From Salarchaeum sp. JOR-1 (GTDB lineage: Archaea; Halobacteriota; Halobacteria; Halobacteriales; Halobacteriaceae): a stretch of 40,000 nucleotides of DNA. The notes beneath the pieces were generated by a model. The model saw nothing but the letters and a program-made list of their open reading frames with translations. It did not search any database and was not told the origin of the DNA. A program made the position numbers and the translations under genes. The DNA lies in the NCBI RefSeq assembly GCF_007833275.1, contig NZ_CP042241.1:2303490-2343489 (forward strand), in the 5' to 3' direction. Shown piece by piece: positions 14,153 through 36,081 of this stretch (positions are counted from its first letter, which is position 1; the number at the start of each line of letters is the position of its first letter).

Positions 14153-14155
14153 CGT

Positions 14156-15175: not shown

Positions 15176-15292
15176 ACCATCAGGTAGTGTTCAGATAAGC
15201 TTTTTTCGTGCGAATCCGAACGTTTGAAGCTGATTTTCGACAGTATCTGCTTCTAGATAGCTGAAACATCTATAGGGCAGGTTGGTTCGGCG

Positions 15293-15583
15293 TTATAATT
15301 CTCCAAGGAAACGTTCAACGCTGTTCCAATTACCGTGTTTCTCGTATCTGTAATCGAGCCTGTGTCGGGGCAGTATTGCTTGCAGCCATGGTGCAGAATC
15401 AACGAAATGTTTGTCGCAGAGTTCCGCGATAATCACCTCGGTGATCGTCCGATTTTTATTGGAGAACCCTTGTAGTACGGCAATCGTTTCGTGTCGGAAC
15501 TGATAACAGCGTACAGCCAGAGCGTTCCATTTAGATGAATAATTTCCCGTCAACCGTAACACGATTCGTCTTTGCGCTATCAA
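15293..15583 (-). pseudogene. C-terminal remnant of an IS6-family (haloarchaeal IS240-type) transposase
   Basis: HFVDSAPWLQAILPRHRLDYRYEKHGNWNSVERFLGEL resembles the DGAxWL...HGNRNxVERxFxExKRR tail of these transposases. There is no ATG, no catalytic N-terminal part, and no IRs were found. Confidence 0.5.
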
Positions 15584-15900
15584 GCGGCCGTAAATCTACC
15601 TTCGGTAACCAATTGCGACCGGTCGTTCGACACTCAACATATCAAAACTGAATTAGAATCCGGAAGCAGTAGTCCAATCAAATAAGTTGGATACCAAGCT
15701 TCAAGTCAGGTTCGAATTTCGTCTCTCCCACTAGAAACCTAACTCAAAGCAATCAGGACTCCAATGAGGCGGGAATTTCTGGCATGAACACTAGAAGATT
15801 GCCCCGTGTCACTCTTCATCCTTATCTGGACAGTACTCCTGTACAGACTAGTAAACTATATACGGCCAACATTTCGGCTTCGCGATAACTGGGGACCTCG

Positions 15901-16440
15901 TTGAAACCGGGGAAACAGTTATTAAAACCGCTATACTTTCGCTTCCTTTCAACAGCGGCCAACAGGCGATCGGATTTGCCTAAATCTAAATTTAACCCAC
16001 TCAAAACTGCGCCCGATCACATTGTTGTTGTCACAGTCGATGCGTTGCGGCCAGATTCTGTCCCGGAAATCGGAATAGAGTTTTCACATGCTATTACACC
16101 GGGTACATGGACGTTCCCAGCAGTTACGAGCATTCTATCTGGACTGTATCCTCACGAACACGGGGCCAATACTATTGTCACAGATGGGGATGAAAACCAA
16201 CAAGTACCCTCCGAGCCACAAGAGATAGCCAATCCCTCCGGTGGTTGGCCCAGTCTTACCGATATATACCCAGTAATTCTAAACACAGTGGGAGAGTCTG
16301 TCAAAGGAGAACTATGGACTGAACCAATCCCGGACGACAGAAGTGGTCTCTGTGAGGCCAGCCATTATGGAAGTGAGCGAAAAGCTGTCAATTGTGGAAC
16401 GCAGAAATTACTTCGGTCAAAGAACGACAATATTACGTAG
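15901..16440 (+). pseudogene. Sulfatase-like (alkaline phosphatase superfamily) N-terminal fragment
   Basis: VVVTVDALRPD and TPGTWTFPAVTSILSGLYPHEHG match the sulfatase N-terminal metal/active-site region. The ORF begins at TTG, loses similarity after about 100 aa, and is far too short to be full length. Confidence 0.5.
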
Positions 16441-16720
16441 TTGGCTCCATTAACACTGATACGAATACTGGATCACTTTCGCGTGGGATCGATGACGAGT
16501 TAAATTCAAAACTTCTTTAAAAATGACTGGCTTCAAGTCAGACTCAATTAGTTAGTGGTTTTGCGGAAGAACAACTCGAAGCGCTTGGATATAAGTAATG
16601 TGTCTACGAGTAAGAATTTAATTTGGTCGAGAACTGATGGCGGAGTTCAAGCCAAGACTAGATAATATCGTTAATTGAGATAAGTTAATGGAAGCAATTT
16701 ATACCAGTTATTGATGAAAC

Positions 16721-18256
16721 ATGGATGAGGATAATTTTGATGACGCTGGCGTCAGTACCCTTGCAACTCAGGGCGGTATCACCTTCTTTGGCAGTGTTTT
16801 CGGACGAGCGTTGGGTTTCGTCTTCACGATCGGAGTTACTAAATTAGTCTCTGCCTCAACGTTCGGAGTCTACTCACTCGGATTGGCTGTAATTCTCTTT
16901 ACTAAATCAGTGGCCGATCTAAGTGTCTATCGGGGAATTGACTACTACATCCCCCAGTATCTTCCTGATGAGAACTACCAGAAAGCGCGAAATCTATTCG
17001 CCACCACGACTGTAATTGCGCTTCTTGGAACCGGACTTGCAGTACTCGTCCTCTGGTTGGTTACGCCACAGATAGCCTCGATATTTGGGGAGGGGAGATT
17101 AACCGAGATACTACCAATTCTATCTCTTGCACTCCCATTTCTGGCTTTCCGCGATATCGTGATTCGCATGTTTATCGCAATAAAGCAATTGAAGTATCGA
17201 GTGTTTCTACGTGATCTTCTTCTTCCTGGAGGGAAACTACTTGTCACACTGGGCCTCATATTTGCAGGTTACGAACTTGTGGCCCTATTGGGGGGATACC
17301 TATTGTCGGTAATCGTGGTGGCTCTCGCAGGAGTTATTTTCCTGCAACGCCGGGTCGGCTGGTTGTTTGACGGCCCAGTCGAAGGTTTCGGGCTGGGCGA
17401 ATTATTCTCCTATTCTCTTCCGTTAGTCTTCGCTGGCGTAATTTATGCGACAATCAGCCAAATAGATTTCTTTATAATTGGATATTACCCGAATACAAAT
17501 TCGAAGGATCTTGCAATATATAAGGTAGCTAATCTCCTGGGGGTTAATATACTGATATTTTTGAACTCATTGGCACCAGTCTTCAAGCCAATGGTTACCG
17601 AGGTAAAAAATGACAATGAGTTGCTCAACAGCCGTTACAGTCTCGCAGCACGCTGGATACTTTTATGCACCCTCCCAATTGCACTGACACTCATCTTAGC
17701 ACCAAGGACATATCTATCTCTGCTGTTCACTCCCGTATACGCCGCTGGCGCAGGAGCGTTAATTGTTCTTGTACTCGGCTATCTAGTGAATTCCTCAGTA
17801 GGCCCAGAAGGGATGGTTCTTGAGGGACTTGGATTTACCAGATTGACTTTAGCAAACACTGTTTTGATGGTCAGTGTAAACGCTCTCCTCGATCTTCTCC
17901 TCATACCACGACTCGGAATTCTCGGTGCTGCAGTTGGAACTGCAGTGGGAATTACATGCGGCGTTATCGCAGGAGTTCTCGAACTCCGATATTTCCGGGG
18001 ACTCTTGCCCTTTGATAGAAGAACCGTCTACGTCCTTCTCTCAGGTGTGCCACCGCTGTCTGTTGGATGGATTGTTACCGCTTTAATCGACAGCCAATTA
18101 CTCCTCGCAGTAACCCTCCCAGTTATCGTCCTTGTATCCTATCTAATCCCTCTCCAGATCTTCGATGTCTTTGGTGAAGAAGACAAATTGGTTGCAGACC
18201 TCATCGAAAAGAAATTTGGAGTTGGCCTACTAGGTTGGTTCATTCACCGGAAATAA
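16721..18256 (+). CDS. Oligosaccharide/polysaccharide flippase (Wzx-like, MOP superfamily)
   Basis: 511 aa and hydrophobic almost throughout, with more than 10 TM segments. The organisation is typical of flippases in archaeal glycosylation clusters. Confidence 0.85.
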   Translation: MDEDNFDDAGVSTLATQGGITFFGSVFGRALGFVFTIGVTKLVSASTFGVYSLGLAVILFTKSVADLSVYRGIDYYIPQYLPDENYQKARNLFATTTVIALLGTGLAVLVLWLVTPQIASIFGEGRLTEILPILSLALPFLAFRDIVIRMFIAIKQLKYRVFLRDLLLPGGKLLVTLGLIFAGYELVALLGGYLLSVIVVALAGVIFLQRRVGWLFDGPVEGFGLGELFSYSLPLVFAGVIYATISQIDFFIIGYYPNTNSKDLAIYKVANLLGVNILIFLNSLAPVFKPMVTEVKNDNELLNSRYSLAARWILLCTLPIALTLILAPRTYLSLLFTPVYAAGAGALIVLVLGYLVNSSVGPEGMVLEGLGFTRLTLANTVLMVSVNALLDLLLIPRLGILGAAVGTAVGITCGVIAGVLELRYFRGLLPFDRRTVYVLLSGVPPLSVGWIVTALIDSQLLLAVTLPVIVLVSYLIPLQIFDVFGEEDKLVADLIEKKFGVGLLGWFIHRK

Positions 18257-18264
18257 ATACCTCG

Positions 18265-19260
18265 TCACCGATACCCGAGGGCCTCAAGTTTTTCTTCGAG
18301 ATCTTCTTCAAACGTGTCCGCGGTATCTGTTGGCGGCTCGGAGACAGTGTGTCGACGTGGGCCATGATTGATGACTAGCCAGGGTACCTTGCACAGTTCG
18401 ACAGTATGAGGATGGCGATAGTGCTCGTAAAGTTTTCCTAATATGGGGTATGGTTGTTCACCGAACATTTCCCCATGATCTGCTGAAACAACCACCTTTC
18501 CGTCGATCTCTGAGATAAGTTCTTCTACTTCCTCCAGGACGATATCGAGCGTTTCACGATATGCCTTCCTCGCTTTTTCGACCTCTATCTCGCCATCAGC
18601 GACCGCCTCAAAGAGTCTAATCTTATCTGACTGGTCGTTTGGATCGACTCCACCGAGATTTAATTGGTCGCGTAATTTGTCCCCCGTCGGGCCTAGTGGC
18701 GGATCGTGGGGCTGCATATAATGAACAATTACCCGTTTATCGTCATACTCATCATGGGCACGTATCGCCGCATTTGTAACCGTCTCAGGCCTCACACAAT
18801 TTGCCTTAGTATCCCAACTAGATAACGGGTCGTCAACAATTGCGTGGAATACTCCGTCATCTATGCGATCAACATGAGGGTTTGCAGTTACATAAACTGT
18901 ATCATGTAATTCTCGTCCAGCAAAATTCTCTCTGATGAACTTTGGGCTATCCGGCCCTTGAGAAATCCGACTATCTAGTGTCCCCGGTAAATCATTTTGA
19001 TTCTCGAAATCATCATAGCGGCACGCATCTAAGAGAATGAGTGTATCCCAATCTGCCTCCATAACATCAATCCCGGACCCAAACCTAAACTGGAATATTC
19101 GATTGAACAAGGGTTTAAAAAGATTAGAAATCTTTGCCACATTGGGGCGATCCGTGATACCACCCCCGAGCCGAGCCTGAATAAATAATTGGGCTTTTAA
19201 TATTAACTGAACAATCCCGTGTTCCTTATAGATTTCAAATACTCTCCTCAGTAGAGACAT
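18265..19260 (-). CDS. Alkaline-phosphatase-superfamily-like protein (sulfatase/phosphotransferase-like)
   Basis: 331 aa. DWDTLILLDACRYD and VVVSADHGEMFGE resemble the two metal-binding motifs of the fold. Confidence 0.55.
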   Translation of the reverse strand: MSLLRRVFEIYKEHGIVQLILKAQLFIQARLGGGITDRPNVAKISNLFKPLFNRIFQFRFGSGIDVMEADWDTLILLDACRYDDFENQNDLPGTLDSRISQGPDSPKFIRENFAGRELHDTVYVTANPHVDRIDDGVFHAIVDDPLSSWDTKANCVRPETVTNAAIRAHDEYDDKRVIVHYMQPHDPPLGPTGDKLRDQLNLGGVDPNDQSDKIRLFEAVADGEIEVEKARKAYRETLDIVLEEVEELISEIDGKVVVSADHGEMFGEQPYPILGKLYEHYRHPHTVELCKVPWLVINHGPRRHTVSEPPTDTADTFEEDLEEKLEALGYR

Positions 19261-19572
19261 GAAGGATTCCCCATCTTATGAGTGGAACCTGACCCGGCGC
19301 ATATTTCCAATCTTCGGTTTGAATTCCGTCCTGTTATCTGGCCCTGTACAATGATATGCCGATAAATGGTTTAACACTCAACCAAACAATATTTCTTCCA
19401 TGGATGTGGGAATCTTTGCAACACAGTCCCTCTATGACTCTAATACCCAGAACTCAATCTCTGGGCGCATTCAGGCCCCATCCAAACGGCAAATATACTA
19501 TCGCTCATCCCGAGAGGCCGTAACAACCATTGTGGAAGCCGTGATATCTTGCTAAATCCAGTGTCTGAATGA

Positions 19573-20507
19573 CTGCTCTATTGAAAATGGAAGACGGCGG
19601 CAGGATTACTCCGTAATGAGTTTGAGGAAATGAGGTCGAGACGGCGATTATGGGAGTCGCTTTACTCGACCTCGTTGAGACAGCACTACGTGTAGCTAAA
19701 CAAGCGTTGGGGAAACGAGCGGGCAAGCCCGACTCAGGCGGGCTTGCCCGCGAGGCCCACATCGTCGCTCACTGTATTCGCAAGGAGGAGGGCCACAGCT
19801 ACGTCGAACTCGTTGATCGGCTGAGTCTCATGCCGGCGGTCTGCGACCGCCTCGGCATTCACCCGGACGCGCCGCCTGATCCAACCACGTTCTACCACTC
19901 GTTCGACCGCTACGCGATGTACGTCTGGCGGGCGTTGCTGCGCATTTCCGCGCAGCAACACCCGCAGTCTGGTCACGTCGCACTGGACAGTACGTTCTTC
20001 GAACGGAAACAAGCCTCACAACACTATCTCCAGCGGTGTGGGCGAAGTGTCAAGACGATCAAAGCGACGACGCTGACCGATACAGAATCGTTGGCGGTGC
20101 TGGACGTCCACTGCTGTATCGAGCGTGAACACGATACGAAGGCTGGCCCGCGGGTCGTCCGCCGGAATGCGGACGACCTGCGGGCCGTGGCCGCCGACAA
20201 CGGCTTCCAAGACTGGCATACCGAATACGAGATCGCTGCACATGATATCGAGTACCTCGTTCACTACCGCGGTTCAACAGCGAAGGCAACCGCGAATAAC
20301 GCACTCATCCGAGCGAAGGGCTACACACAGCGATGGATGGCAGAAACGTCTTACTCGACGGTCAAGCGAACGCAGGACTCCGCCCTGCGTTCGCGGTTCT
20401 GGTACCGCCAGTTCCGTGAGATCGTTCTCCTGTTCGCGCTCAACAACCTCAAGAAGCTCGCCAAAACGCTATGATCCCGCTCCCGTACCGCATTTTCAAT
20501 AGAGCAG
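19573..20507 (+). mobile_element. IS5-family insertion sequence (935 bp)
   Basis: Perfect 17-bp terminal inverted repeats CTGCTCTATTGAAAATG lie at 19573-19589 and 20491-20507. They enclose a single DDE transposase ORF. No target-site duplication is evident. Confidence 0.8.
19650..20474 (+). CDS. IS5-family DDE transposase
   Basis: 274 aa. The segments ALDSTFFE...SQHY, AADNGFQDW and the C-terminal RWMAETSYSTVKR are typical of haloarchaeal IS5/ISH-type transposases. Confidence 0.88.
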   Translation: MGVALLDLVETALRVAKQALGKRAGKPDSGGLAREAHIVAHCIRKEEGHSYVELVDRLSLMPAVCDRLGIHPDAPPDPTTFYHSFDRYAMYVWRALLRISAQQHPQSGHVALDSTFFERKQASQHYLQRCGRSVKTIKATTLTDTESLAVLDVHCCIEREHDTKAGPRVVRRNADDLRAVAADNGFQDWHTEYEIAAHDIEYLVHYRGSTAKATANNALIRAKGYTQRWMAETSYSTVKRTQDSALRSRFWYRQFREIVLLFALNNLKKLAKTL

Positions 20508-20690
20508 CTCACTCCAGTTTGGAATGTCGAGGGCCTGAAGATAGGGTCCGCGAGAACCGACGAACGGGTCATCCGAATCCGTGGTCTGGAATCGCTGATG
20601 AACGTTCCGCGCGGCGTTACCGAGGTCGCCGAGCAGGTATGCCTCATAGGCGTCCTTGATCTGTTCTGCGCGGCGAGCAGGATCGTTCAT
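20496..20690 (-). pseudogene. 3'-disrupted last gene of the defence-like operon; the last 3 codons and the stop come from the IS
   Basis: The ATG overlaps the upstream stop in an ATGA. The reading frame runs into the IS5 right IR at 20507 (…NWSE|LLY*). The left flank of the IS does not continue a convincing ORF. Confidence 0.5.
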
Positions 20691-21463
20691 CGGGTATCGA
20701 TCTCCATTCGAATTGCCGATTCGAGGTCATCGACGCCTTTCATCTCCTTGATGACCTCGACAGAGAGTTCGTTCAGACGGACGCTACCCTCCTCCGCGAA
20801 GCGCTTGAGTATGTCCATGGCATCCTCGCTCAGTCCGTGTTCCTCCTGGAACGAATCCCATCCGTGCTTTCCGGCGTTCTGTTCCCACTTATCGGTCAAG
20901 TTGTCCCACCGGGACTCCAGAGACGATAGGGTTCTGTCCTCGTCCCAGATCGACTCGTTGAGGAACGCATCCATGTCCGATAACACCTCCTCGAAATCGC
21001 TCCCGGCACCCCCGATGATCTGATTGAGGTCACGGGCGGATTCGATTTCCCCTTCCCATTCCCGCTGGTGTTCTCGAATCGCGTCTATCGTCTCGCTCCG
21101 AGCATGACGAACTACCTCTCGAGCGTCCTCGACGCTCTGGAGGATTTCATTCGTCCGCCTGTCTTCGGCCGCACTGAGCACTTCCTCATCGGTGATGTCA
21201 GAGACCTCACGGACACGACGGACCGCCCTATCTACTTCGTCGAGGCGGTCGCCGCCGAAGACGCTCGTTAGCACTCCGTCGTAGAAAAGCAGGCCTTCGA
21301 CGGACGAGTCGAGACTGCTGAGTTCCCGCCCCAAATCCCCGATGTTGTCCTTCGCTCGCCGGATCTCCGCTTCCAGATCGTTGGCCCGTTCGGCACGATC
21401 CGCTTTCTCCCCGATCTCCTCGATTTTCCGCTCGAGTTCGTCCTCGAACTGAGATTCGCTCAT
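20687..21463 (-). CDS. Acidic coiled-coil protein, function unknown
   Basis: 258 aa with heptad-like E/R/L-rich segments. It overlaps the upstream ATPase gene as TAATG. Confidence 0.75.
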
Positions 21464-24400
21464 TACTGGACACCTCCGATAGTCTGCTGGACTGAGTCGC
21501 GCGCGTCACTGAACACCTCGAACTCTGTCGAGGACTCGACCTGATCTCGGAAGTCGCCGACTTCGCTACCTTCGGCGTCTTCCAACGCCTCGACCATCTC
21601 CGCAAAGACCTCGTACACTTCCCATGCAGCGCTCTCGTTCAGACTACGCTGATATTCGTGTAGAAGAGCGATTGACGAGATTGCGTCGTCCGTCTCCGCG
21701 TCTTCGATTTCATTGAGAGTTGACCGGAAATCTCCAAGACCGAGGTCACTCTCGGAATCGTTCAGTAACTGCCCGACGTCCCCCCATTTCTGACGGTGGG
21801 TGACGTTGAGCGGCCCCAGCGCGCTTTCCATTTCATCGTAAAGTTCAGCTAATTCCTCCTGAGTATGGCTCAGGTGGTGGAACCTCCGGTAATGGTCGGT
21901 TTCCTCCTGGAGATCTCCGACGTCCACTTGCTGTTCCACCTTCTCCAGTTCACCCGCTAGGTCGGAGAAGTCCTCTACAATCTTCCCGAAGCGCTTCTGA
22001 GAGTTGTTTCGAGTCGTCCCGATTCTGTAGGCGTCCGCTAAATCATCGACGCTCGTCGTACTTAGACCGCTCAGGTAACTGTCGAGATTCTCGGACACGC
22101 CGTTGATGGCTTCATTGAGGCGCTCGTAATCCACTACGTTCTCTTTCAAGAGGAAGAAGCCTCGTGCGAGGCTTCCGATGTCTCCCGTGTGATTGGAGGC
22201 CCGCTCGAAAGCGCCTTCGAGGCCCTGTGGGAGTTCTATCCCGACGTCGGATTGGTAGCTGAGGGGGGACGTCTCCTCCATCTGGTACCCCTCGAAGACC
22301 AGTTCGGGCGAAAGATCGGTTTTCCCCTTACCGATATTCATCACCAGGAAGTGAGCAAGGACGACGAACTCCTCTATAGTCATCTGCTCGGGGAGGTGGC
22401 CTTCGATGTCCCGCCGCATCCGACCCCGATACTCCACGACCTTGTCGGTCGCCCAACCCCGGAGTTTGTCGAAATTGGCGTCGTCTTCAAACGAGTCCGC
22501 GTACCCGTGGTGGAGCATCTGACGGTATAGTTCCTCATTTTCCGTACCGTGGGGTACTTCGAAACTCATCGACGCCGGCGAGTCGGCACCTCGTATAACC
22601 ACGGGCGGCTCTGATCCCCGGTCGAAATAGATCCCCGTGGTGTTCCTCGCCGTGGAGTTCTCGTTCGCAAGTCTTGTCGGGTCGTGCCACCTCTCCAGCG
22701 TGGCCACCACGCCGTCTCGGAACCGATCCGCGGATGCGTACTCCGTACCGTCCATCAGCCAACTCTGGAACTCCCGGTAGTCCTCTGGCGGAACTTCAAC
22801 TTCCGGTTCCGGACCCGGACGTCCTTCTTCATCATCTCCTTCATCCCCCTCTTCGTCCGTTTCTTCCTCCACTTCCTCCGATTCATCTTCCTCCGGTTCC
22901 CGGTCGGCTTCGTCTTCGTCATCGGTGTCGATGCGCTCGGAGGTCGGCTCAGCTCCCGGTTCGCGCTCGATGACAGTCACGTCCCCCGCTGCGAAGCTGG
23001 TGTCGAAGAAGACGTTCCCGTCTTTTTCCGCCGCCCCGTGCGTATCAACTCCAAACGCGTCGAACACCTCGGTCGGAAGCCAGAGCTGTCCCCGGTGTTT
23101 CAGTGCGTACCATTGAGTCAACTCGAGGCACGGCGTGGAGTGCTCGTTGATTCCGATGAGGTAAGGGCGTTGGCGGACGTAGGAATTGTTCTGTACTGCC
23201 TCGAACGGAGGCACGTCCGAGGTCAGGCATTCTGCGATGACGTGGACGAGTAAAATTCGCGGCGTCTGCTGGAGGTTGCCGTCCTGCACGAGGTTGGCAT
23301 AGACGTGTCGGATGAACGCTTCGTTGAACGGGTACACCGAATCGAACGCCTCTTCAGGCACCTCGGCACTCGCTTCGGAGTGTTCCTTGATCGCGTCGAG
23401 GTACGCCTTAACGAGGACGACGGGAGCGCTCTGCCCTTCGAGGAAGTAGGCCTGACCGTTGTCGTCGGTCATGCTGAGATACCCCTGAGTCCGCTGTTTC
23501 ATGTAGGTCAACGAGTCTTCGCTCGTCGATAGCGCGTCGTCGATATTCTCGCGCTCCCACCCCGTCGTCCATCCCATAATGACGTCGTAATGGCCGCTGG
23601 ACAACTCGAAGATATGGTCCAACAGATCGTCTTTGAGCACGCTGAACGTGGTCAGGTCCTCACAAATCAGAACCGGGCGCTTGCCCTCTTCGACGTAAGC
23701 TTCGGAGATGTCCTCTAACTCGCGCTTGAAGTCCTCGATGCCGATGTTCCGGGTCAGCAGATCGTGAACAGCGCGGCGAACTACGGGATAGACGTCGTCC
23801 TCTCGCTTGGTTTCCCCGAACGCGCTGAAACAGATACGTCCGTAGTCCTCGCGGGACAGCAGGTACTCCTTGATGTCCTGTTCTTGGCCTTCCTTCTCCA
23901 CGGACTCCTGATACTCTTCGATATTCTCGACGAGAATGGTTCTGAAATCCTCCGCATTCGAACGGGGTTCGAGGAACTCCTCCAAGTCGAAGCTTCTGAG
24001 GGCGCCCTGTCCTTTGTAGAACGTGTGGAGTCCCTGGATGATGAAGTCCGCGACGTCTTCCGGGTTCAGCGAAGAAATGTCGTTGACCTCTTCGTATTCT
24101 TTGTCGATGGGGTCGTGGAGGATCTCCAGAATCTCGTCTAGCCTGGTGTTGCTCCTGGAGATGTGGATTGCGACGTGTTCGTCGTCGGTCCCATCGCTCT
24201 CGCCGTAACCGTTGATCTCGTACTCGAGCCACTGGCAGAGATGGCTCTTCCCGCTCCCGACCTCACCCTTGACGATGAAGATGCGGTTGTCGTCTTCGAG
24301 GTCTGAATCCAGAACTGCGTCCCGGAACTGGGACTCCGTCACGAAGGCGTCGTCTCCGCTGTGGGGGCGCAGTATCTCCGCCCGTATCTTGTCTATCTCG

Positions 24401-24501
24401 ACGTGGGTCTCTCGGAAGACCTTGGGAGTCTTCTGCTGTGACTCCGGTTTGATGAAATCCTCTACGACATCTCGGTCCCAGTTGCGAACCATTTGAGTCA
24501 T
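21463..24501 (-). CDS. Large P-loop NTPase (1012 aa) with an internal poly-acidic linker
   Basis: Walker A is KGEVGSGKSH (about 24244-24267). Walker B-like is PVLICEDLT. A D/E-rich tract lies at about 22786-22938. Resemblance to BrxC/PglY- or PbeC-type defence ATPases is only a hypothesis. Confidence 0.85.
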   Translation of the reverse strand: MTQMVRNWDRDVVEDFIKPESQQKTPKVFRETHVEIDKIRAEILRPHSGDDAFVTESQFRDAVLDSDLEDDNRIFIVKGEVGSGKSHLCQWLEYEINGYGESDGTDDEHVAIHISRSNTRLDEILEILHDPIDKEYEEVNDISSLNPEDVADFIIQGLHTFYKGQGALRSFDLEEFLEPRSNAEDFRTILVENIEEYQESVEKEGQEQDIKEYLLSREDYGRICFSAFGETKREDDVYPVVRRAVHDLLTRNIGIEDFKRELEDISEAYVEEGKRPVLICEDLTTFSVLKDDLLDHIFELSSGHYDVIMGWTTGWERENIDDALSTSEDSLTYMKQRTQGYLSMTDDNGQAYFLEGQSAPVVLVKAYLDAIKEHSEASAEVPEEAFDSVYPFNEAFIRHVYANLVQDGNLQQTPRILLVHVIAECLTSDVPPFEAVQNNSYVRQRPYLIGINEHSTPCLELTQWYALKHRGQLWLPTEVFDAFGVDTHGAAEKDGNVFFDTSFAAGDVTVIEREPGAEPTSERIDTDDEDEADREPEEDESEEVEEETDEEGDEGDDEEGRPGPEPEVEVPPEDYREFQSWLMDGTEYASADRFRDGVVATLERWHDPTRLANENSTARNTTGIYFDRGSEPPVVIRGADSPASMSFEVPHGTENEELYRQMLHHGYADSFEDDANFDKLRGWATDKVVEYRGRMRRDIEGHLPEQMTIEEFVVLAHFLVMNIGKGKTDLSPELVFEGYQMEETSPLSYQSDVGIELPQGLEGAFERASNHTGDIGSLARGFFLLKENVVDYERLNEAINGVSENLDSYLSGLSTTSVDDLADAYRIGTTRNNSQKRFGKIVEDFSDLAGELEKVEQQVDVGDLQEETDHYRRFHHLSHTQEELAELYDEMESALGPLNVTHRQKWGDVGQLLNDSESDLGLGDFRSTLNEIEDAETDDAISSIALLHEYQRSLNESAAWEVYEVFAEMVEALEDAEGSEVGDFRDQVESSTEFEVFSDARDSVQQTIGGVQ

Positions 24502-25400
24502 GCTTCGTACCTCCGTTCCGACCTTTCGAGTGGGTGCCAGTACGAAGGTCTGTCTGGCGCAGCCTCGATCGTATAATCGGCTGGCGTCTGACTGTTATCG
24601 ATGCTCATCGGAAGGTCTACGACTTCACTCCGGTCGGACATCCCCGTGAGTGACAAGGCACCGTCCGCGACGAGGCTCTCTAGGACATCGGCAACCCCGA
24701 CGTGGACTGCCGGTTGTCCTCCAGTCCGACTGAAGACCGGGAAGAAATTCCCGTCGATCCACTCCAGAGCGGATAAAACGCTATCCCCGTTCGCCCGGTG
24801 ACGTTGATGGTGGAACAGCAGTTCGTGAAGCACTGCTCTGCTCGGGGACAGCAGTATCTCGTCGTGGTCAGAGGAGAACGAGAGACCTCCGAGAGGCGCG
24901 AGGAGATTCGCCCACATCAGTATTTTCTCCTCCCTCCACTCGAGGTCGTAGTCGGTCTCCCGATCGACCTCGATCACAAGGTCGTCCACGGAGACGCGAC
25001 GAACCCCGTAGTGCCCCACGTCTGCTGAGATCTCCTGAACGGCGACCTCGTAGATGGCGGCGAGGTGGGATTGCTTTCCTGTCTGCTGCCCTATGTGATA
25101 AAGGAGCCTCGGTTCGAACGTGAGTTCAAATTCTGGAAAGAGATCCCGGTTCATCGGGTTGAGGACATCTTGTCCCGTCTGTTCCACCATGTCCAATGTC
25201 CGCAAGAACCGAAGGCAGTTGTCGATGTGGTCTGTTTCGAGGCCCGACGAGCATGGACGGCCAAACCGGTTTTCGATCTGTGAAAGCGGAGTCATGGGGT
25301 CAATATCGGTATAAATTGACTTGAGTTCGGCCCCACGAACCGTCCCGTAGCCTGTCAGGAGCTTTTCCGGTTTCGACGTGTTGTATTCGTAGTCAGACAT
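24498..25400 (-). CDS. Hypothetical protein (300 aa), operon partner of the large NTPase
   Basis: Long ORF with haloarchaeal composition. It has an 8-nt overlap with the upstream gene and an ATGA overlap with the downstream gene. Confidence 0.75.
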   Translation of the reverse strand: MSDYEYNTSKPEKLLTGYGTVRGAELKSIYTDIDPMTPLSQIENRFGRPCSSGLETDHIDNCLRFLRTLDMVEQTGQDVLNPMNRDLFPEFELTFEPRLLYHIGQQTGKQSHLAAIYEVAVQEISADVGHYGVRRVSVDDLVIEVDRETDYDLEWREEKILMWANLLAPLGGLSFSSDHDEILLSPSRAVLHELLFHHQRHRANGDSVLSALEWIDGNFFPVFSRTGGQPAVHVGVADVLESLVADGALSLTGMSDRSEVVDLPMSIDNSQTPADYTIEAAPDRPSYWHPLERSERRYEA

Positions 25401-26235
25401 CGGCGTACAGTTCTGCGTTCTGTTGGCGTCGTTCGTCGAGACGATCCGTTCTAAACTGACACTGCGTGAGCATCGAATCCATGTTGTTCGCTATTTTCTG
25501 AACGTCTCCTCGTTCCGTCCACGAGCGTAACGCCTCCCGGATTCGTTCCGTGTACCTGTCGAGAATCTCCTGTAGATCGTGCTCGACGAAGTAATAGAGC
25601 GGGTCCCAGGCCGGACTGTTCGGAGGCGCCTTCTCGTAATCGAATAGTTCCGGAAGAGTGCTGGCTGGCGCACCAACGGCGTTGTGACAGTCCGAGATCT
25701 GGTGATAGTAGAGGTTTTTGGAGCCCCGGTTGGTCGAGACAGGTAACGCCGAATCTAGGTTGTCCCGGATATAGCTCGTTACCCGCGACTCGTAATCGAT
25801 CCCCTTGTTCGGCGTGAACTCATCCACGAAGGAACGCTCGGTCGTGTATGCCGGTGTCCGTGGTGCGTTGGTATCAGAGACGACGATGTAAATGTCGTCT
25901 TCTGATCGCTGCTTCAGGAGCGACCTAACGAGGTGTTGCTCGCCGTATTCGGTCAGCCCCTCTTGGCTCACGACGTGGACCAAGGGGAACTCTATCTCGT
26001 GAGGGTCTACATCCTCCGGACCGAAGTAGGTGTACGAAACTGGCTTGAAATCGTTGTCCCAGAGGTCTGTGTGTATGATCCTGTCGTACCCGTGCTCTAT
26101 CAGCAACGGGAGGCTGCGTAATTGAGCCCTCGGCTCGTGGGTGTGCTCACCGACGTATGGATCTCGAATGACGATGAGGTTCGCATACGTCTGGCCGGTC
26201 AGTGAGGAGAGCCCTGATTCCACGAGTTGTGACAA
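25393..26235 (-). CDS. Hypothetical protein (about 276-280 aa), first gene of the five-gene operon
   Basis: Long ORF. The only start candidates are TTG 26235 or GTG 26223. A TATA-like CATTTAT lies on the minus strand at about 26250. Confidence 0.7.
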   Translation of the reverse strand: MSQLVESGLSSLTGQTYANLIVIRDPYVGEHTHEPRAQLRSLPLLIEHGYDRIIHTDLWDNDFKPVSYTYFGPEDVDPHEIEFPLVHVVSQEGLTEYGEQHLVRSLLKQRSEDDIYIVVSDTNAPRTPAYTTERSFVDEFTPNKGIDYESRVTSYIRDNLDSALPVSTNRGSKNLYYHQISDCHNAVGAPASTLPELFDYEKAPPNSPAWDPLYYFVEHDLQEILDRYTERIREALRSWTERGDVQKIANNMDSMLTQCQFRTDRLDERRQQNAELYADV

Positions 26236-26279
26236 CCCGCGGTCACCTGATAAATGTATTGGAGGGATAGACCTTCGGC

Positions 26280-29200
26280 CTACTGCGAGCCGTGGTATTC
26301 AGGACGGGCGGGACAGTTCCAGCGTAAATCACACTCGGAACAGGTTCCCTCAGATGGCGCGTCCGCGGGAGATATGTCGAACCAATCGCCGCCTTCTCGA
26401 TCCTGTTCGATGTCATCTACGGTTTCTTCGAAAGCGGAGAGTGAACTCTCCACTGAGCCCTCTTGGAAATTGAGTTCGAAGACCGCATTGTCTCGATCGT
26501 CTTCTCCCAAAAAGTAGATGACTCCCCTCTCGGGATATTTGCCCTGCTGATAGCGGTATAGTTCTGCATAGGTGTTCAGCTGGGCTTGGTAGTCGTTCAG
26601 CTCCCGACTCCCGTCCGGCCGTTGTCCCGCCTTGTAGTCCCAGATCTCGTAACCGTCTACGTCGTCCCCCGCGAGAACGTCAACGACCCCTTCCAGAACG
26701 AAGTCATCCCGGTTGCTCTGAAGGCGGTGTTCGGTGTCAACGACTCGCGGGTAGAGCCGCTCGCCTTCCTTCCTGTTGAAGCGTTGGATGTACGAGAGCG
26801 CAGTGTCTTCGGCCTCTTGGCTCATCGGATAGATATTCCGGGCTTTCAGCGCTTCGGCCACCTCGCGGAAGTACGTGGCAATCTCGTCGTCGGTCGGGAT
26901 CGTGCCTTCGTCGATGTCCTCGATTTCACCCGCGTAGTGTCGGTGTGCTCTATCCAGCGTTTCGTGGACCACTCGTCCGAAGAAGAGCTGTGTGACGTGG
27001 TTGGGTGCGAAATCGAGTTCGTTGTAATACCCGTACTGGCGCTTACACCGGCGGTAGGCTAGGACGTCACCGGTGATGCTATACCTGCGTTTCAGCCCGA
27101 CATCGCTGTGGGGGCCGACACTTCCACCCACCAAGTTGAGGAAGTCGTCAGCGGATTCGATTTCTCTGGCCCCTGTGAACCAGTTCTCTGTCAGAGGGTC
27201 ACCTTGTTCGGTATAACCCAGGGAGAGATCAGTCGTCGCCCCCTCTTGGTCAAGTAGAAGTAGGTCGTCCTCCGCTCGGGAGTACGCCACGTAGAAGCGG
27301 CGGATCTCGTCTCGATTGGCTCTCTCGTCAGTAGTTCCAGTCGGGTGTATGTCGGCATACGGCTCTAATTGGTCCTCCAGCCAGTAGGTGCCGCCCGTCC
27401 AAGGTTCGCTGTCCAGGTCACTGACGAAGGTCACCGGGAATTCGAGGCCCTTGGCCTGGTGAACGGTCATCATCTGTACGAAGCCGTCCGGGATCTGGTC
27501 GTGGGGATCCTCTGGTTCGTCGAAATCGGACGCCTCCAGGTACCCGCAGAACACGTAGTAGAACGAGCCGAGGAATTGAGTTGATACGGACAGCGTTCTC
27601 GAAGACTTCTGCATGTGTTCCGGTCCGGTGATACTGGCGAAGGAGTCGAACAACTTGGAGAGGCGACCGAGCCTCTTCCCTCGCTCCGGGCGATCGGGAG
27701 TCTCGATCCATGTCTGGAATGGCTCGAACGAGAGGATCCGGTAGAGAAGTTCGAGGACGGTGTATCCCAGCGACTCGCTGTCACCTGCACGTCTGAGTTC
27801 GCGCCGTTTCCTGCGGACGTAACTGTCCAGCTCTGTCGCATCGTGGTCGTCAACGAACTCATCGAATTCCTCGTGCCAGTCCTCGATCTGTCCCTTAACT
27901 CGGCCCATAACGCGTGCCGCTTCCACTCCCTCCAGTTCGGGATCGAGACAGCGAATAACAGCGCTCAGCGCGAACTGGACTTCCTCCTGTTCCAGAAACG
28001 CCTTGTTTCGAGGATTGTGAACGGGAATATCCCGATCCCGGAGAGCTTCCGCGTATTTGCCGGCCCATCGGGAGGTCTCCTTCGTGCTCTTGAAAAGGAA
28101 CGCAACTTGGCTGTAATCCTCGATGTACCCTTCGTCGTGGAGCTCTTCGACTAATTCAGCCGCTGTTTCCGCGGGATGTTCGTCACTGTCACCGATCAGG
28201 AGCGACTTGACACTCTTCCGTTCCCCCGTCTCCTCCCGGCCCACGTCCATCGACTCCTTGTTCGGAGCGCGTGCCCCCTCTCGCTGCATGAGGGGGTACT
28301 CGTTCATATATCGGTTACACCAGTCCACGATATCTTCCGTAGAGCGGTAGTTCGTGTTCAACTGCTCCCGCTGAACGGATTCACCAAATCGCTCCTCAGC
28401 GCGCTCCGGGAACTGAATCAGACACTCCACGGTACCGCCCCTGAAGCGATACAGAGCCTGGTCATCGTCACCGACAACGGTTAGATTCGGACTATCGAGC
28501 TCCTCCGTCAATCGGAAGTAGAGCTCTTGCTGAAGCGGATTCGTGTCCTGGTACTCGTCAACGAGGATGTGTTCGAGAGGCGGGCGCTCGCGCTCCGGTT
28601 CCCCTTGAATGAACCGGCTGCCGGCCTCGCTTCCTATGAAGTCGATGAACCGCTCTAGAAGGCGGGCAAAGTCACATCGGTGATTCTCCTGTAGAGTCTC
28701 GCGGTATCGCTCAAGTCCCTCAGCGCAGACCCGCCACTCGGGTTCCGGGGCGCGACGCAGAGCCTCCGTGTCCGCCAAGTACTGGGACACCCGATTGAAT
28801 ATCTGAGAAGCACCATCGGTCGCCTGCCACTTGTTTGGGCCGTACTGAGGGCTGACGCCGCGCGGCAGCACCTTCTCGAAAAACTCCCACGCGTCTTCCG
28901 ATAGTTCGTCCGAAGAGACCGTCTCCCAGTTCTCTGCGTCGGCATTCCCTTGGAGAACGGACACGAAGTCACAGTTGTTGTACATGAAGAGCTGCTGACC
29001 GTCTTCGTCGAGGAGTTCTGTATTCGCGTAGGCGGGATACCGATACTCCTGCATTATATCGTTACAGAGGGAGTGAAGGGTCCCGATGTGGATTTCGTTG
29101 ACATCGACGTCGTCCTCGAATCCGAATCGGTTCAACCGGTCAACAATCCGCTCTTCCAGGTTCTGAGCGGCCTTCTCGGTGAACGTCGTGAGGAGGATAC

Positions 29201-29426
29201 TTCCCGGAGCGACGTCGTCAACGAGAAGGAGTTTGAGCGTCCGCGAGATCAGCACCTCGGTTTTTCCACTTCCCGGTCCCGCAGTAATCCAAAGCGGCCC
29301 GTCGCCCGCGAGTATCGACCGCTCTTGGCTGTCGTTGAATTCCCAGTCCTCGTCATCGAATCGCTCTCTGTTCGCTTCTTCCAGTAACGAGATGAAGGCG
29401 TCCTCAGAAAGCGGGAGAGATGGCAT
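26280..29426 (-). CDS. UvrD/Rep-type SF1 helicase fused to a C-terminal Cas4/AddB-like PD-(D/E)XK nuclease with a 4-Cys cluster
   Basis: Walker A is AGPGSGKTE. Other helicase motifs are TFTEKAA, ILVDEYQDTN and MTVHQAKGLEF. The C-terminal region has C(RRCKRQY), EIWDYK and CSECDLRWNC, i.e. the C-x2-C-x5-C pattern. Confidence 0.9.
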   Translation of the reverse strand: MPSLPLSEDAFISLLEEANRERFDDEDWEFNDSQERSILAGDGPLWITAGPGSGKTEVLISRTLKLLLVDDVAPGSILLTTFTEKAAQNLEERIVDRLNRFGFEDDVDVNEIHIGTLHSLCNDIMQEYRYPAYANTELLDEDGQQLFMYNNCDFVSVLQGNADAENWETVSSDELSEDAWEFFEKVLPRGVSPQYGPNKWQATDGASQIFNRVSQYLADTEALRRAPEPEWRVCAEGLERYRETLQENHRCDFARLLERFIDFIGSEAGSRFIQGEPERERPPLEHILVDEYQDTNPLQQELYFRLTEELDSPNLTVVGDDDQALYRFRGGTVECLIQFPERAEERFGESVQREQLNTNYRSTEDIVDWCNRYMNEYPLMQREGARAPNKESMDVGREETGERKSVKSLLIGDSDEHPAETAAELVEELHDEGYIEDYSQVAFLFKSTKETSRWAGKYAEALRDRDIPVHNPRNKAFLEQEEVQFALSAVIRCLDPELEGVEAARVMGRVKGQIEDWHEEFDEFVDDHDATELDSYVRRKRRELRRAGDSESLGYTVLELLYRILSFEPFQTWIETPDRPERGKRLGRLSKLFDSFASITGPEHMQKSSRTLSVSTQFLGSFYYVFCGYLEASDFDEPEDPHDQIPDGFVQMMTVHQAKGLEFPVTFVSDLDSEPWTGGTYWLEDQLEPYADIHPTGTTDERANRDEIRRFYVAYSRAEDDLLLLDQEGATTDLSLGYTEQGDPLTENWFTGAREIESADDFLNLVGGSVGPHSDVGLKRRYSITGDVLAYRRCKRQYGYYNELDFAPNHVTQLFFGRVVHETLDRAHRHYAGEIEDIDEGTIPTDDEIATYFREVAEALKARNIYPMSQEAEDTALSYIQRFNRKEGERLYPRVVDTEHRLQSNRDDFVLEGVVDVLAGDDVDGYEIWDYKAGQRPDGSRELNDYQAQLNTYAELYRYQQGKYPERGVIYFLGEDDRDNAVFELNFQEGSVESSLSAFEETVDDIEQDREGGDWFDISPADAPSEGTCSECDLRWNCPARPEYHGSQ

Positions 29427-29530
29427 GTGTCAACCCTCATTACCCGGTCAAATAAGCATGGCGTCGGGGTTCTGAGAGCTCACTTACCGATGCCCCCCTA
29501 GGTTCCATCTATAGTGACCCAGCAGTAAGG

Positions 29531-29812
29531 CTACTCACTCCAGCACTGAACCGATTCATCCTCTATCTCGCAGATGAAAAAGTCCTCCTCGGGATACAGA
29601 ATGAATCGATCCTCGTCGTCGTTCTCAACGTATTCTACGTCGTCTATAACCCAATCAGAGTCTTCATTCCCTTCCCAAGTGTAATAGTTCGGCTCGCCCT
29701 CTACAGCAAAGTCGAGGATACCGGAGCCGCTCCCTAAGATATGTTCCACTTGCTCAAGGCGTGACCTCTCTGTTATTCTGACCATGATTGACCTATTTGG
29801 CCCCACGCCCAT
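29531..29812 (-). CDS. Small acidic hypothetical protein
   Basis: 93-aa ORF lying between the HTH gene and the helicase-nuclease gene on the same strand. No motif was recognised. Confidence 0.45.
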   Translation of the reverse strand: MGVGPNRSIMVRITERSRLEQVEHILGSGSGILDFAVEGEPNYYTWEGNEDSDWVIDDVEYVENDDEDRFILYPEEDFFICEIEDESVQCWSE

Positions 29813-29865
29813 TAATTCGGCACCTGTGGTAGTAGTCTGCTATGAGCACTGAATGAGAAGCCGTA

Positions 29866-30225
29866 CTACTCGTCCGGTTCTCCGAGAGATACCGACTTAG
29901 TGAATGCACACACCATAGCATATTGGTTGAGTCGGTCTGTAACCCTGATCTCCTTCCGTTGCTCATCATATTCAACGAGGCCGGCTGAAGCGAGCCTAGG
30001 CAGATGCCGTTGAATCAGCCCGTTGTAGGCCGATTCGTACTCATCTGCTCCGATTCGATGAGGGGGTGTGCCGGTTTCAACAGCGCGGATTACTCGCGCG
30101 ACATGTCGAACCTCGACATCGACACCTGAGTCAAACATCGAGAGGTACTCAACAACCAGAAACCGCCTTTGATTCCCCAGGAGGGCGTGAACCTCGGCAG
30201 GTTTGTATCCCTCAGTGACGCTCAT
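29866..30225 (-). CDS. Winged-helix regulator of the DUF7344 type
   Basis: LLGNQRRFLVVEYL...HVARVI...YNGLIQRHLPRLASAGLVEYD follows the same pattern as the gene at 3503..3961. Confidence 0.7.
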   Translation of the reverse strand: MSVTEGYKPAEVHALLGNQRRFLVVEYLSMFDSGVDVEVRHVARVIRAVETGTPPHRIGADEYESAYNGLIQRHLPRLASAGLVEYDEQRKEIRVTDRLNQYAMVCAFTKSVSLGEPDE

Positions 30226-30314
30226 ACTATACCACCGGAGCCTGACTGTCTGCTCTCATGACCGGTAGCGGTACAGCCGTTGAACTTTTGCGGATCGTCG
30301 TCGTCAGAGTACAT

Positions 30315-30332
30315 GCTGTCTCACCAGACAGC
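30315..30332. promoter_or_regulatory. Perfect hairpin/palindrome gctgtct-cacc-agacagc between queC and the HTH gene
   Basis: Read directly from the sequence. It could be the queC terminator or an operator for the HTH gene. Confidence 0.3.
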
Positions 30333-30435
30333 GCGGGTGCGGTGTCTCAGCACCGGACCCACTTTTGTGGGCCACCGCGCCTTGAACTCTCTAGTGACGG
30401 AAACCACTTAACCGCAGGCAATTCGTCGTTTGGCG

Positions 30436-31131
30436 TTATGTCTCGGTATAGTCCGGCCGCTTCGCGTAATCGATGGGATCACGCTCGCCGAGATTTTGGA
30501 ACGCCTGAAGGCGGAACGCACACGCGTCGCAGGTACCGCAAGCCGGTTCTTCCTCCCGGTAGCAGCTCCACGTGTGTTCGTAGGGGACGTCGAGTTCGAG
30601 CCCTCGTTCGGCGATGTCGGTCTTCGACCACTCGTCGAACGGAGCTTCGATACTGATCTCCGTCTCGGGTTTCGTGCCGACGTCAACGACCTGCTGGAAC
30701 GCCTCGAAGAACTCGGGGCGGCAGTCAGGATATCCCGAGAAGTCCTCGGTATGGGCGCCGATGAACACCGCATCGCACTCCTTGGCTTCCGCGTACGAGG
30801 TCGCCATGGAGAGGAGGTTGGCGTTCCGGAACGGAACGTAGGAGGACGGAATCTCGTCGCCTTCCAAATCCGCGTCTTCGACCTCCATCTCGTCGTCGGT
30901 GAGACTCGAGGATCCAATCTTCGAGAGGTGATCCGTCGTGAGGTGGAGGAAGTCCGCGGCGTCGAAGGCTTCGGCCTGCGCCTTCGCGCATTCCAACTCC
31001 TTGCTCTCGGTCTGCTGGCCGTACGACGTGTGGAGCAGGTATAGGTCGTAGCCGGCGTCCTGAGCGACTGCGGCAGCAGTTGCGCTGTCCATCCCACCCG
31101 ACGCCAGGACGACCGCCCGCGGACGGCTCAT
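30436..31131 (-). CDS. queC: 7-cyano-7-deazaguanine (preQ0) synthase QueC
   Basis: The PP-loop is LASGGMDS. The C-terminal zinc site reads WSCY...CGTCDACAFR. Confidence 0.93.
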   Translation of the reverse strand: MSRPRAVVLASGGMDSATAAAVAQDAGYDLYLLHTSYGQQTESKELECAKAQAEAFDAADFLHLTTDHLSKIGSSSLTDDEMEVEDADLEGDEIPSSYVPFRNANLLSMATSYAEAKECDAVFIGAHTEDFSGYPDCRPEFFEAFQQVVDVGTKPETEISIEAPFDEWSKTDIAERGLELDVPYEHTWSCYREEEPACGTCDACAFRLQAFQNLGERDPIDYAKRPDYTET

Positions 31132-31736
31132 AGGTCTTCCTCCCGGACAATCGCGTCGCGGAACTGTTCTCGTTCCTCCTCAGTCAGATCTCCGACGGAG
31201 GCCCTCGTGGTGGTCGTACTTTCCGTCTCTACGCCGCGCATCGCCTCGCAGAGGTGTGTCGCGTTGACCTCGACGAGTACCGCGGGAGCATCTATCTCAT
31301 CGGCGAGTCCAGAGGCGATGTCGTTCGTCAGCCGTTCCTGCATCGTTAGCTGTCGTGTCTGCCAGCGGACGTACCGCGTGAGTTTCGACAGGCCGACGAC
31401 TTCTCCGTCCGGTCGGTATGCGACGTGGGCCGTCCCGAAGAACGGCAGCAGGTGGTGTTCGCACAGGGAGTAAATCGGGATATCCGTCTTGACGACGAGG
31501 TCGTCGGTCTGGGCGTCGAACGTTCGCATCGTCGGCTTCGATGCTTCCCGCTGGCCCTCTGTGAGGGTCCTAAAGGTCTCGGGAACGCGACGCTGCCACG
31601 TCTCGGTGAGCCCATGGCGCTCGGGATCTTCCCCCACCGCTTCTAACAGGAGGCGGACGCCGCGCTGTGCTTTCTCGTAGTCGATGTCTCTCTCGCTGCC
31701 AGTCTGCTGCTTCAGTTCGGAATGTGAGTTCGTCAT
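31128..31736 (-). CDS. folE: GTP cyclohydrolase I (FolE type)
   Basis: 202 aa from ATG 31736. Diagnostic segments are SLCEHHLLPFFGTAHVAY and VVGLSKLTR. The ORF-track extension to 32189 overlaps queE out of frame. Confidence 0.9.
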   Translation of the reverse strand: MTNSHSELKQQTGSERDIDYEKAQRGVRLLLEAVGEDPERHGLTETWQRRVPETFRTLTEGQREASKPTMRTFDAQTDDLVVKTDIPIYSLCEHHLLPFFGTAHVAYRPDGEVVGLSKLTRYVRWQTRQLTMQERLTNDIASGLADEIDAPAVLVEVNATHLCEAMRGVETESTTTTRASVGDLTEEEREQFRDAIVREEDL

Positions 31737-31737
31737 G

Positions 31738-35994: not shown

Positions 35995-36044
35995 CTTCGA
36001 CTCCGTTAATAAATCTCATTTCTTTTATCATTCTATCGGGCTAG

Positions 36045-36070: not shown

Positions 36071-36081
36071 GAGCGGGAGGC

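Follow-up and report, generated by a model that had tools for sequence, protein, structure and literature searches.

An operon of DpdG- and DpdH-type genes in a 7-deazaguanine island of Salarchaeum sp. JOR-1, probably a restriction arm that has lost its helicase to an insertion sequence

What is the five-gene operon that lies beside 7-deazaguanine genes in the haloarchaeon Salarchaeum sp. JOR-1, and could it still act with its last gene cut short? The operon occupies positions 20496-26235 of the 40,000-nucleotide stretch that we analysed (contig NZ_CP042241.1 of assembly GCF_007833275.1, positions 2,303,490 to 2,343,489 of the forward strand; hereafter the window, whose numbering is used throughout). 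An earlier note, made from the letters of the window and their open reading frames (ORFs), had described a cassette of small proteins around a P-loop NTPase of 1012 amino acids (aa) and had suggested that it might be BREX- or Pbe-like, or else an undescribed module. We propose that the operon is very likely the arm for sensing and restriction in a haloarchaeal 7-deazaguanine restriction-modification island of Dpd-like (BRIGADE) type. This reading follows from the homology of its proteins, a gene order like that of dpdG-H-I-J, the YprA helicase found in intact relatives and the deazaguanine genes next to it.

ORF coordinates and sequence gave five co-directional genes, g1 to g5, on the minus strand:

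25393-26235, minus strand: g1, 280 aa from a TTG start, or 276 aa from the GTG at 26223 that the annotation of relatives uses
24498-25400, minus strand: g2, 300 aa
21463-24501, minus strand: g3, 1012 aa
20687-21463, minus strand: g4, 258 aa
20496-20690, minus strand: g5 stub, 64 aa

Neighbouring genes overlap by 8 nt (g1/g2, ATGTCTGA), 4 nt (g2/g3, ATGA), 1 nt (g3/g4, TAATG) and 4 nt (g4/g5, ATGA), which reproduces the coordinates, sizes and overlaps that the earlier note had given. The tight junctions are not a matter of chance, since every cassette junction across 30 haloarchaeal loci falls between -8 and +10 nt. Compared with two relatives, the operon genes have dN/dS values of 0.05-0.30 and are under purifying selection. 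The transcription unit probably also takes in a UvrD-nuclease gene (described below) that ends 44 nt upstream of g1.

Bacterial dpd loci provided the reference for the operon proteins. On an Enterobacter plasmid annotated by PGAP, dpdG (291 aa), dpdH (1068 aa), a 282-aa hypothetical gene in the DpdI position and dpdJ follow one another with overlapping junctions. A genome scan found the same pattern at 41 further bacterial dpd loci, with proteins of about 300, 1010-1110 and 235 aa. The DpdG, DpdH and DpdI alignments used in hhalign were built from these loci, and cross-family controls for the g2, g3 and g4 comparisons gave E values of 0.14-0.58. With this approach, a comparison of hidden Markov models (HMMs) of the kind that the earlier note had suggested, g3 aligned with bacterial DpdH at a probability of 99.7% (E = 3e-26, 716 columns) and g2 with bacterial DpdG at 96.8% (E = 2e-10, 280 columns).

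Other searches agreed for g3. It matched the NCBIfam DpdH model NF041065 (E = 1.9e-22, 79.6 bits) and nine PADLOC DpdH models (best 1.1e-13), and Pfam AAA_22 at 1.4e-4. Members of the DpdH family match AAA_22, AAA_16, NACHT and nSTAND models, and 1 of 15 matched BrxC_BrxD at 0.036. Walker A (GEVGSGKSH, residues 79-87) and Walker B (VLICED, residues 277-282) both lie in columns that are invariant in 12 haloarchaeal homologues and in an alignment that includes bacterial DpdH; the GSGKSH and ICED motifs on which the P-loop NTPase prediction had been based are thus present and conserved. From the N-terminus the predicted layout of g3 is a conserved region, the P-loop NTPase domain, an acidic disordered linker at about residues 511-570 and a C-terminal domain. 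None of its five cysteines forms a CxC. We regard g3 as a predicted AAA_22/STAND-type P-loop protein whose homology to DpdH is clear. Some relatives of g3 (L016-L023 and L080; ~1120 aa) carry an inserted archaeal Fn3/Ig-like domain, PF23374, which has led to their mis-annotation in RefSeq as 'S-layer protein' or 'immunoglobulin domain-containing protein'.

For g2, reciprocal searches pointed the same way as the alignment. All of the top 11 of 4557 bacterial ORFs ranked with an HMM of archaeal g2 were DpdG, and the top 14 archaeal ORFs ranked with an HMM of bacterial DpdG were all g2. This DpdG homologue lies directly upstream of the DpdH homologue, as expected for a Dpd locus, and we assign g2 to this family on these comparisons. 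An AlphaFold2 (AF2) model of g2 (predicted local distance difference test score, pLDDT, 83.6) contained three tandem winged-helix units. Its best Foldseek matches were weak (E = 0.01-0.1) and were to tandem winged-helix proteins: SelB WH2-4, MukE, JetB, Nse1/3 and Dcc1.

The case for g4 was built from several pieces. Within its N-terminal 60 residues, Pfam matches were of coiled-coil type only. Aligned with bacterial DpdI alone, g4 reached a probability of 8.6% (E = 0.004, 127 columns); with two bridging non-halophile sequences added, the probability was 73% (E = 3e-5, 219 columns; controls, E = 0.17-0.36). In reciprocal HMM rankings DpdI took the first 3 places among 4557 bacterial ORFs, and g4 the first 2 among 3161 archaeal ORFs. 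The position of g4 directly downstream of DpdH and its size also agree with DpdI. Because the bridged alignment, the HMM ranks, position and size agree, we take g4, with moderate confidence, as the DpdI equivalent.

The first gene behaved differently. g1 had no Pfam, PADLOC or NCBIfam match, a Pfam scan of all 45 members of its family returned only noise, and hhalign found no match between g1 and DpdE, F, G, H or I. As far as these comparisons go, g1 appears to have no counterpart in canonical Dpd. The family is small: its profile found 44 cluster representatives at E <= 1e-3 among 1.84 billion proteins. The AF2 model of g1 (pLDDT 85.9; predicted TM score, pTM, 0.85) consists of an alpha/beta core followed by a helical bundle that forms a lid. 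Nearly all of the top ~30 Foldseek matches in the PDB were AAA+ or related P-loop ATPases (FtsH, RFC, RuvB, ORC), and these matches were weak (E = 0.008-0.1, TM 0.2-0.29). The sequence has no Walker A and no GK[ST] motif, and the modelled fold looks like an AAA+ ATPase without Walker A. BrxB has been described as an inactive STAND/ORC-type fold (PMC12839542). To judge by the model, g1 recalls BrxB, which is a lead and not a demonstrated relationship. Sequence-profile searches of PDB sequences with the g1, g2 and g3 alignments returned nothing meaningful.

What had been read as a truncated fifth gene is indeed incomplete, and can now be described as the first 61 codons of a helicase gene of 1829 aa cut at an insertion sequence (IS). 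In four related loci (L001, L002, L003 and L005) the gene after g4 encodes 1829-1830 aa with Pfam DEAD and Helicase_C domains. Since this intact protein matches the PADLOC models DruE (3e-46) and DpdJ (8e-33) and also DrmA, it can be assigned to the YprA family of defence helicases. As far as ...NWSE the g5 stub agrees with the start of the 1829-aa L001 helicase in 60 of 61 residues; it then continues as LLY and a stop, three codons and a stop contributed by the end of the IS. At the nucleotide level the match to L001 and L005 breaks off at 20507, exactly at the outer end of the terminal inverted repeat of the following element:

19573-20507, plus strand: IS element, 935 bp, with a DDE transposase at 19650-20474 (DDE_Tnp_1, 6e-13)

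Its 34-nt terminal inverted repeats (19573-19606 and 20474-20507) are 79% complementary. The flanks of the IS differ, with no target-site duplication, and the missing 97% of the helicase gene was not found elsewhere in the window. For these two reasons the helicase appears to have been lost by an IS-associated deletion or rearrangement. Directly to the left of the IS, at 15000-19300, is a low-GC block (45-47% against 55-65% elsewhere). It holds pieces of sulfatase- or phosphodiesterase-like genes along with a Wzx/MatE-like polysaccharide flippase (16721-18256), and was probably acquired separately as a glycosylation segment.

On its other side the operon adjoins the following genes:

26280-29426, minus strand: UvrD-type superfamily 1 (SF1) helicase fused to a Cas4/AddB-type PD-(D/E)xK nuclease, 1048 aa
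29531-29812, minus strand: acidic protein, 93 aa
29866-30225, minus strand: DUF7344 winged-helix protein, 119 aa (DUF7344, 3e-19)
30436-31131, minus strand: queC (NCBIfam QueC, 186 bits; cut-off 150)
31128-about 31736, minus strand: folE (NCBIfam FolE, 180 bits; cut-off 162)
31738-32511, minus strand: queE (NCBIfam match below cut-off)
32511-32972, minus strand: queD (NCBIfam match below cut-off)
33091-35994, plus strand: DpdA fused to a DpdC-like/DUF6884 domain (NCBIfam DpdA, 275.3 bits, cut-off 200; PADLOC DpdC, 1e-7; DUF6884, 7e-7)
36082-37116, plus strand: second TgtA-like TGT (TGT, 7e-30)
37113-38009, plus strand: 298-aa protein with no assigned family
38010-39164, plus strand: BrxD-like ATPase (BrxC_BrxD, 4e-17; BrxD, 2e-12)

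A DpdA transglycosylase gene next to preQ0 genes is the arrangement expected of a Dpd system. The divergent block from DpdA to the BrxD-like ATPase is a putative modification module. In many loci its genes for the second TGT, the 298-aa protein and the BrxD-like ATPase occur as a group upstream of the cassette, and the trio is conserved next to DpdA in L011, L018, L020, L022, L024, L025 and L032. Since no DpdB was found, the BrxD-like ATPase might, by analogy, stand in for bacterial DpdB in providing the ATP-dependent step. The UvrD-nuclease fusion is a candidate nuclease effector. It scored 3e-52 with Pfam UvrD-helicase, 2e-20 with UvrD_C and 3e-20 with PDDEXK_1, with weak NCBIfam matches to cas4 and AddB, and its translation shows a C-terminal CxxCx5C motif. 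Its gene adjoins g1 in L001-L003 and L005 and lies nearby in L009 and L032. The two small genes that separate queC from the UvrD-nuclease gene recur in the related islands L005, L015, L017, L018, L021, L023, L024, L028 and L032.

Because many haloarchaeal loci have these genes beside the cassette, the operon appears to be part of a Dpd-like deazaguanine island of ~18.7 kb (20496-39164). The earlier note had tied the operon to the neighbouring deazaguanine genes, and the survey of genomic contexts agrees: dpdA and que genes accompany its homologues in many loci. This linkage was seen also in L005, L011, L018, L020, L022, L024, L025 and L032, and in two contigs from non-halophiles, L075 and L078, whose proteins lack the acidity of those in the window (D+E 12-16%, compared with 23%). 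L075 carries Vut_1, DUF6884, HTH and TGT genes followed by g1- to g4-like genes and a YprA helicase of 2011 aa. In L078 a DpdA-DUF6884 fusion accompanies g1- to g4-like genes and a pair of UvrD and AddB-like genes, and there is no YprA helicase within 5.5 kb downstream. A nanohaloarchaeal metagenome-assembled genome (L009) likewise has g1-g4 and the UvrD-nuclease gene and no YprA helicase. To judge by these loci, the four-gene core g1-g4 combines with alternative motors or nucleases.

Within haloarchaea, the order g1-g2-g3-g4-helicase was found in 30 loci, and the helicase was present in 29 of them. In the window's own subtype (L001, L003 and L005) a single YprA helicase lies within 10 kb; two are present in more distant relatives, and where the two are in tandem a divergent Csa3-like gene accompanies them. 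Over 14 kb (20507-34500) the window is 98% identical at the nucleotide level to the chromosome of Halosimplex aquaticum (L005, NZ_CP118158.1). Identity this high between different genera indicates that the whole Dpd-like island was recently transferred.

From the observed homology, synteny and context we infer complex formation, modification sensing and cleavage, which may be pictured as follows. Host DNA would be marked with preQ0-type bases by the DpdA module. DpdH, an active-looking STAND/ORC-class P-loop ATPase with intact Walker motifs, would be joined by the coiled-coil DpdI, the triple winged-helix DpdG and the AAA+-like g1 that lacks Walker A. Together, g1-g4 would form an ATP-dependent BrxC/BrxA/BrxB-like scaffold for DNA surveillance. 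On recognising unmodified DNA, this scaffold would license the effectors, namely the YprA helicase and the UvrD/PD-(D/E)xK fusion. With just 61 codons of the YprA helicase gene left by the IS, the restriction arm in JOR-1 would be either crippled or reduced to the UvrD-nuclease route, an arrangement that occurs naturally elsewhere.

Several observations weigh against this picture. The score of g3 with the DpdH model, 79.6 bits, is below the equivalog cut-off of 450 bits, and in NCBI's sense g3 would be a distant relative of DpdH, not an orthologue. The statistics that make g4 a DpdI are marginal. Among the island proteins there was no PADLOC or NCBIfam match to DpdB (a ParB-like ATPase), DpdD or the DpdE and DpdF helicases. 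The PLD nuclease DpdK was not found in the window, which holds one chance HxKxxxxD match in an unrelated ORF and no true HKD. The BrxC-like view of g3 finds no sequence-level link in Pfam, NCBIfam, PADLOC or a profile search of PDB sequences, and the top 50 Foldseek matches of g2 did not include BrxA (7zge). The BrxA-like view of g2 and the BrxB-like view of g1 come from Foldseek matches with E >= 0.008. Finally, without the helicase the operon may do nothing in JOR-1.

This last point leads to the alternative that matters most for the strain itself: that the operon is a non-functional relic, in which IS-mediated loss of the helicase inactivated restriction, possibly relieving self-toxicity, and in which g1-g4 are still intact only because the event is recent. 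We think this quite possible, if somewhat short of probable. With 97% of the gene gone and an IS whose missing target-site duplication indicates deletion or rearrangement, JOR-1 lacks a component that 29 of 30 haloarchaeal cassettes retain, and the loss must be recent given the 98% identity of the island to the intact Halosimplex aquaticum copy. Yet g1-g4 and the UvrD-nuclease gene have neither frameshifts nor stops. Their dN/dS values against that same copy are 0.09-0.30, though these mostly reflect the time before the truncation. Cassettes that lack YprA and carry a UvrD-type helicase or nuclease also exist (L009, L078), and since elsewhere the core occurs with other motors or nucleases, the Salarchaeum island may still be active without its helicase. 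A more far-reaching idea would make g1-g4 a portable BREX-like reader with swappable effectors and a range well beyond the haloarchaea, in which g1 is BrxB-like, g2 is BrxA-like, DpdH and DpdI are a split BrxC and the complex senses deazaguanine. We hold this idea tentatively and consider it rather unlikely; if it were true, the Salarchaeum island would be a living effector swap, restricting through the UvrD-nuclease after the loss of YprA.

Two other explanations would take the operon out of the Dpd family altogether. Membership in BREX (BrxA-BrxB-BrxC) or in the archaeal Pbe module was suggested by the sizes and order of the first products (about 280, 300 and 1012 aa), which recall brxA-brxB-brxC. 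It gains something from the several winged helices of g2, a trait that BrxA has too, from the AAA+-like model of g1 without Walker A, as described for BrxB (PMC12839542), from the BrxD-like ATPase within the island and from the term BrxC-like, which the preprint's description applies to DpdH/I (10.1101/2025.09.15.676423). We nevertheless judge it very improbable. No BrxC model in Pfam, NCBIfam or PADLOC matched g3 at E <= 1, the island proteins had no PglZ or PglX match, BrxA stood outside the top 50 Foldseek matches of g2, and profile searches of PDB sequences gave neither BrxA nor BrxB; BREX membership was rejected on the first two of these results. For Pbe, the CxC ABC ATPase, the HKD-SF2 (superfamily 2) helicase and DndE are all of other classes, and the window holds no true HKD. 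Still harder to credit is a housekeeping or plasmid-condensing SMC-like complex of the MukBEF/Wadjet type, made of an ATPase, a KITE-like winged-helix protein and a coiled coil. The Foldseek matches of g2 do include MukE, JetB and Nse1/Nse3, and g4 has a coiled coil, but those matches are weak (E = 0.01-0.1), and the Walker A and B motifs of g3 lie 200 residues apart in one domain of the AAA_22/NACHT class. An SMC/Wadjet system was rejected on this ATPase class, which is not SMC/ABC. The cassette is also strictly linked to dpdA, que genes and defence-type helicases and nucleases. It sits on plasmids and islands with IS elements, Csa3 and McrB-like genes, and it moves between genera.

Other parts of the window hold genes that we record separately. 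At 8042-10634 on the minus strand are three overlapping ORFs of 289, 263 and 366 aa (GC 65-68%) with no Pfam or NCBIfam match. Weak PADLOC matches to RAMP proteins (Csm3, E = 0.0015, at 9765-10634; Cmr3, E = 1.8e-6, at 8042-9142) suggest that they may be a stand-alone RAMP-containing module; there is no CRISPR array in the window. A 267-aa ORF at 39197-40000 (minus strand) has a D...IDTK motif and two C-terminal CxxC pairs, and is possibly a zinc-ribbon nuclease of the PD-(D/E)xK type. It had no family match and no homologue in related loci. A gene for the RNA-guided endonuclease TnpB and two Orc1/Cdc6 genes, one of which lacks the N-terminal ~75 residues, lie at 1321-2640, 5516-6736 and 7034-7987, a combination typical of haloarchaeal integrated elements. 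At 12806-15175 (minus strand) a PAPS-reductase-domain protein (339 aa, 14156-15175) is paired with a 448-aa protein of the type I phosphodiesterase/nucleotide pyrophosphatase family; neither gave a DndC or other PADLOC match.

How does the operon compare with systems already described? PbeABCD (PMC6459918; PMC10853773) is likewise an archaeal multi-gene defence cassette paired with a DNA modification module. Its modification is phosphorothioation, and every component is of another class: PbeC is an ABC ATPase head split by a coiled coil with a CxC Zn hook, PbeA joins an HKD nuclease to an SF2 helicase, and PbeD resembles DndE (PMC10853773). The Walker A (79) and B (278) motifs of g3 fall in one contiguous AAA_22/NACHT-class domain without CxC, which does not fit the Pbe definitions (PMC10853773), and the Pbe-like label was dropped. 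Nor is there a sign of PbeA and dnd genes in the window, where no true HKD motif occurs and the neighbours are que and dpdA genes.

The likeness to BREX is closer in plan. As with BrxA, BrxB and BrxC (PMC12839542), a large STAND/ORC-class P-loop protein comes after two small proteins, here one with several winged helices and one perhaps of an inactive AAA+-like fold; a coiled coil goes with the ATPase, and the logic of self-marking is shared. The mark differs, being N6-methyladenine in BREX and a deazaguanine base here; the coiled coil is here a separate protein, and there is no PglZ, no PglX methyltransferase and no sequence-level match to BrxA, BrxB or BrxC. The analogy with BrxC drawn in the earlier note therefore survives in part: g3 belongs to the same broad P-loop class, and DpdH with DpdI is equated with BrxC in the preprint's description (10.1101/2025.09.15.676423), but BREX membership falls with the missing BrxC, PglZ and PglX matches.

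In canonical Dpd, of the Salmonella Montevideo type, DNA modification is the task of DpdA, B and C and restriction that of DpdD-K, whose individual roles are not assigned (PMC10164549). The island shares DpdA next to preQ0 genes and, with bacterial Dpd in general, the succession DpdG-DpdH-DpdI-(YprA helicase) of overlapping genes for proteins of similar size; only 61 codons of the helicase remain after DpdI in the window, whereas intact relatives have it. It departs from the canonical type in that its proteins are very divergent (80 bits against 450 for g3), DpdB, DpdD, DpdE, DpdF and DpdK were not found in the window, and the helicase of intact relatives is closer to DruE than to DpdJ. The island also adds g1, the UvrD-nuclease, a second TGT and the BrxD-like ATPase, and has its DpdC-like domain fused to DpdA. 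The pairing with deazaguanine genes, which the earlier note would have counted as new, is the defining feature of Dpd (dpdA-K; PMC10164549) and of haloarchaeal BRIGADE, and so is no novelty.

BRIGADE is the described system to which the island comes nearest in host and content. The preprint's description (Bell et al., bioRxiv 10.1101/2025.09.15.676423) reports it only in halophilic archaea. A deazaguanine cluster is combined there with DpdG, YprA helicases, 'DpdHI/BrxC' and a nuclease of the PLD or PD-(D/E)xK kind; often there is also a DNA2-like helicase-nuclease (Type I) or a CasRa-like regulator (Type II). The window matches in its haloarchaeal host, its 7-deazaguanine cluster and its DpdG and DpdH/I homologues. 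An ARMADA/Druantia-like YprA helicase follows DpdG/H/I in its intact relatives, and a PD-(D/E)xK nuclease is present, carried on the UvrD fusion that is probably the preprint's 'DNA2-like' protein; the Csa3-like regulator of the two-helicase relatives matches Type II. The window differs in that close intact relatives have one YprA helicase within 10 kb where BRIGADE usually has two, its own copy being truncated, and in that no PLD nuclease was seen in it. Homologous cassettes also occur in the non-halophilic contigs L075 and L078, and g1 is not mentioned in the preprint text that we read.

On this comparison the operon appears to be a new, IS-damaged member of the Dpd-like/BRIGADE family and not a new kind of system. 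The view of it as a defence-type cassette of small partners around a large P-loop NTPase is borne out, and the suggestion of an undescribed module gives way to a Dpd/BRIGADE type, although g1 is unannotated and lacks a canonical Dpd counterpart. Correct naming has practical value, because the public annotation ('hypothetical protein', 'S-layer protein') is uninformative. The locus offers a compact conserved core (g1, DpdG, DpdH and DpdI), with confident models for the two small partners g1 and g2, that is found again outside halophiles and with different helicases or nucleases as partners. The intact Halosimplex aquaticum island and the helicase-truncated JOR-1 island, 98% identical, form a natural pair for asking which motor is needed. 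Some modest new points go slightly beyond the published BRIGADE and Dpd descriptions: the g1 family as the conserved first gene of the cassette, the cassettes outside halophiles, and the YprA-less variants with a UvrD partner.

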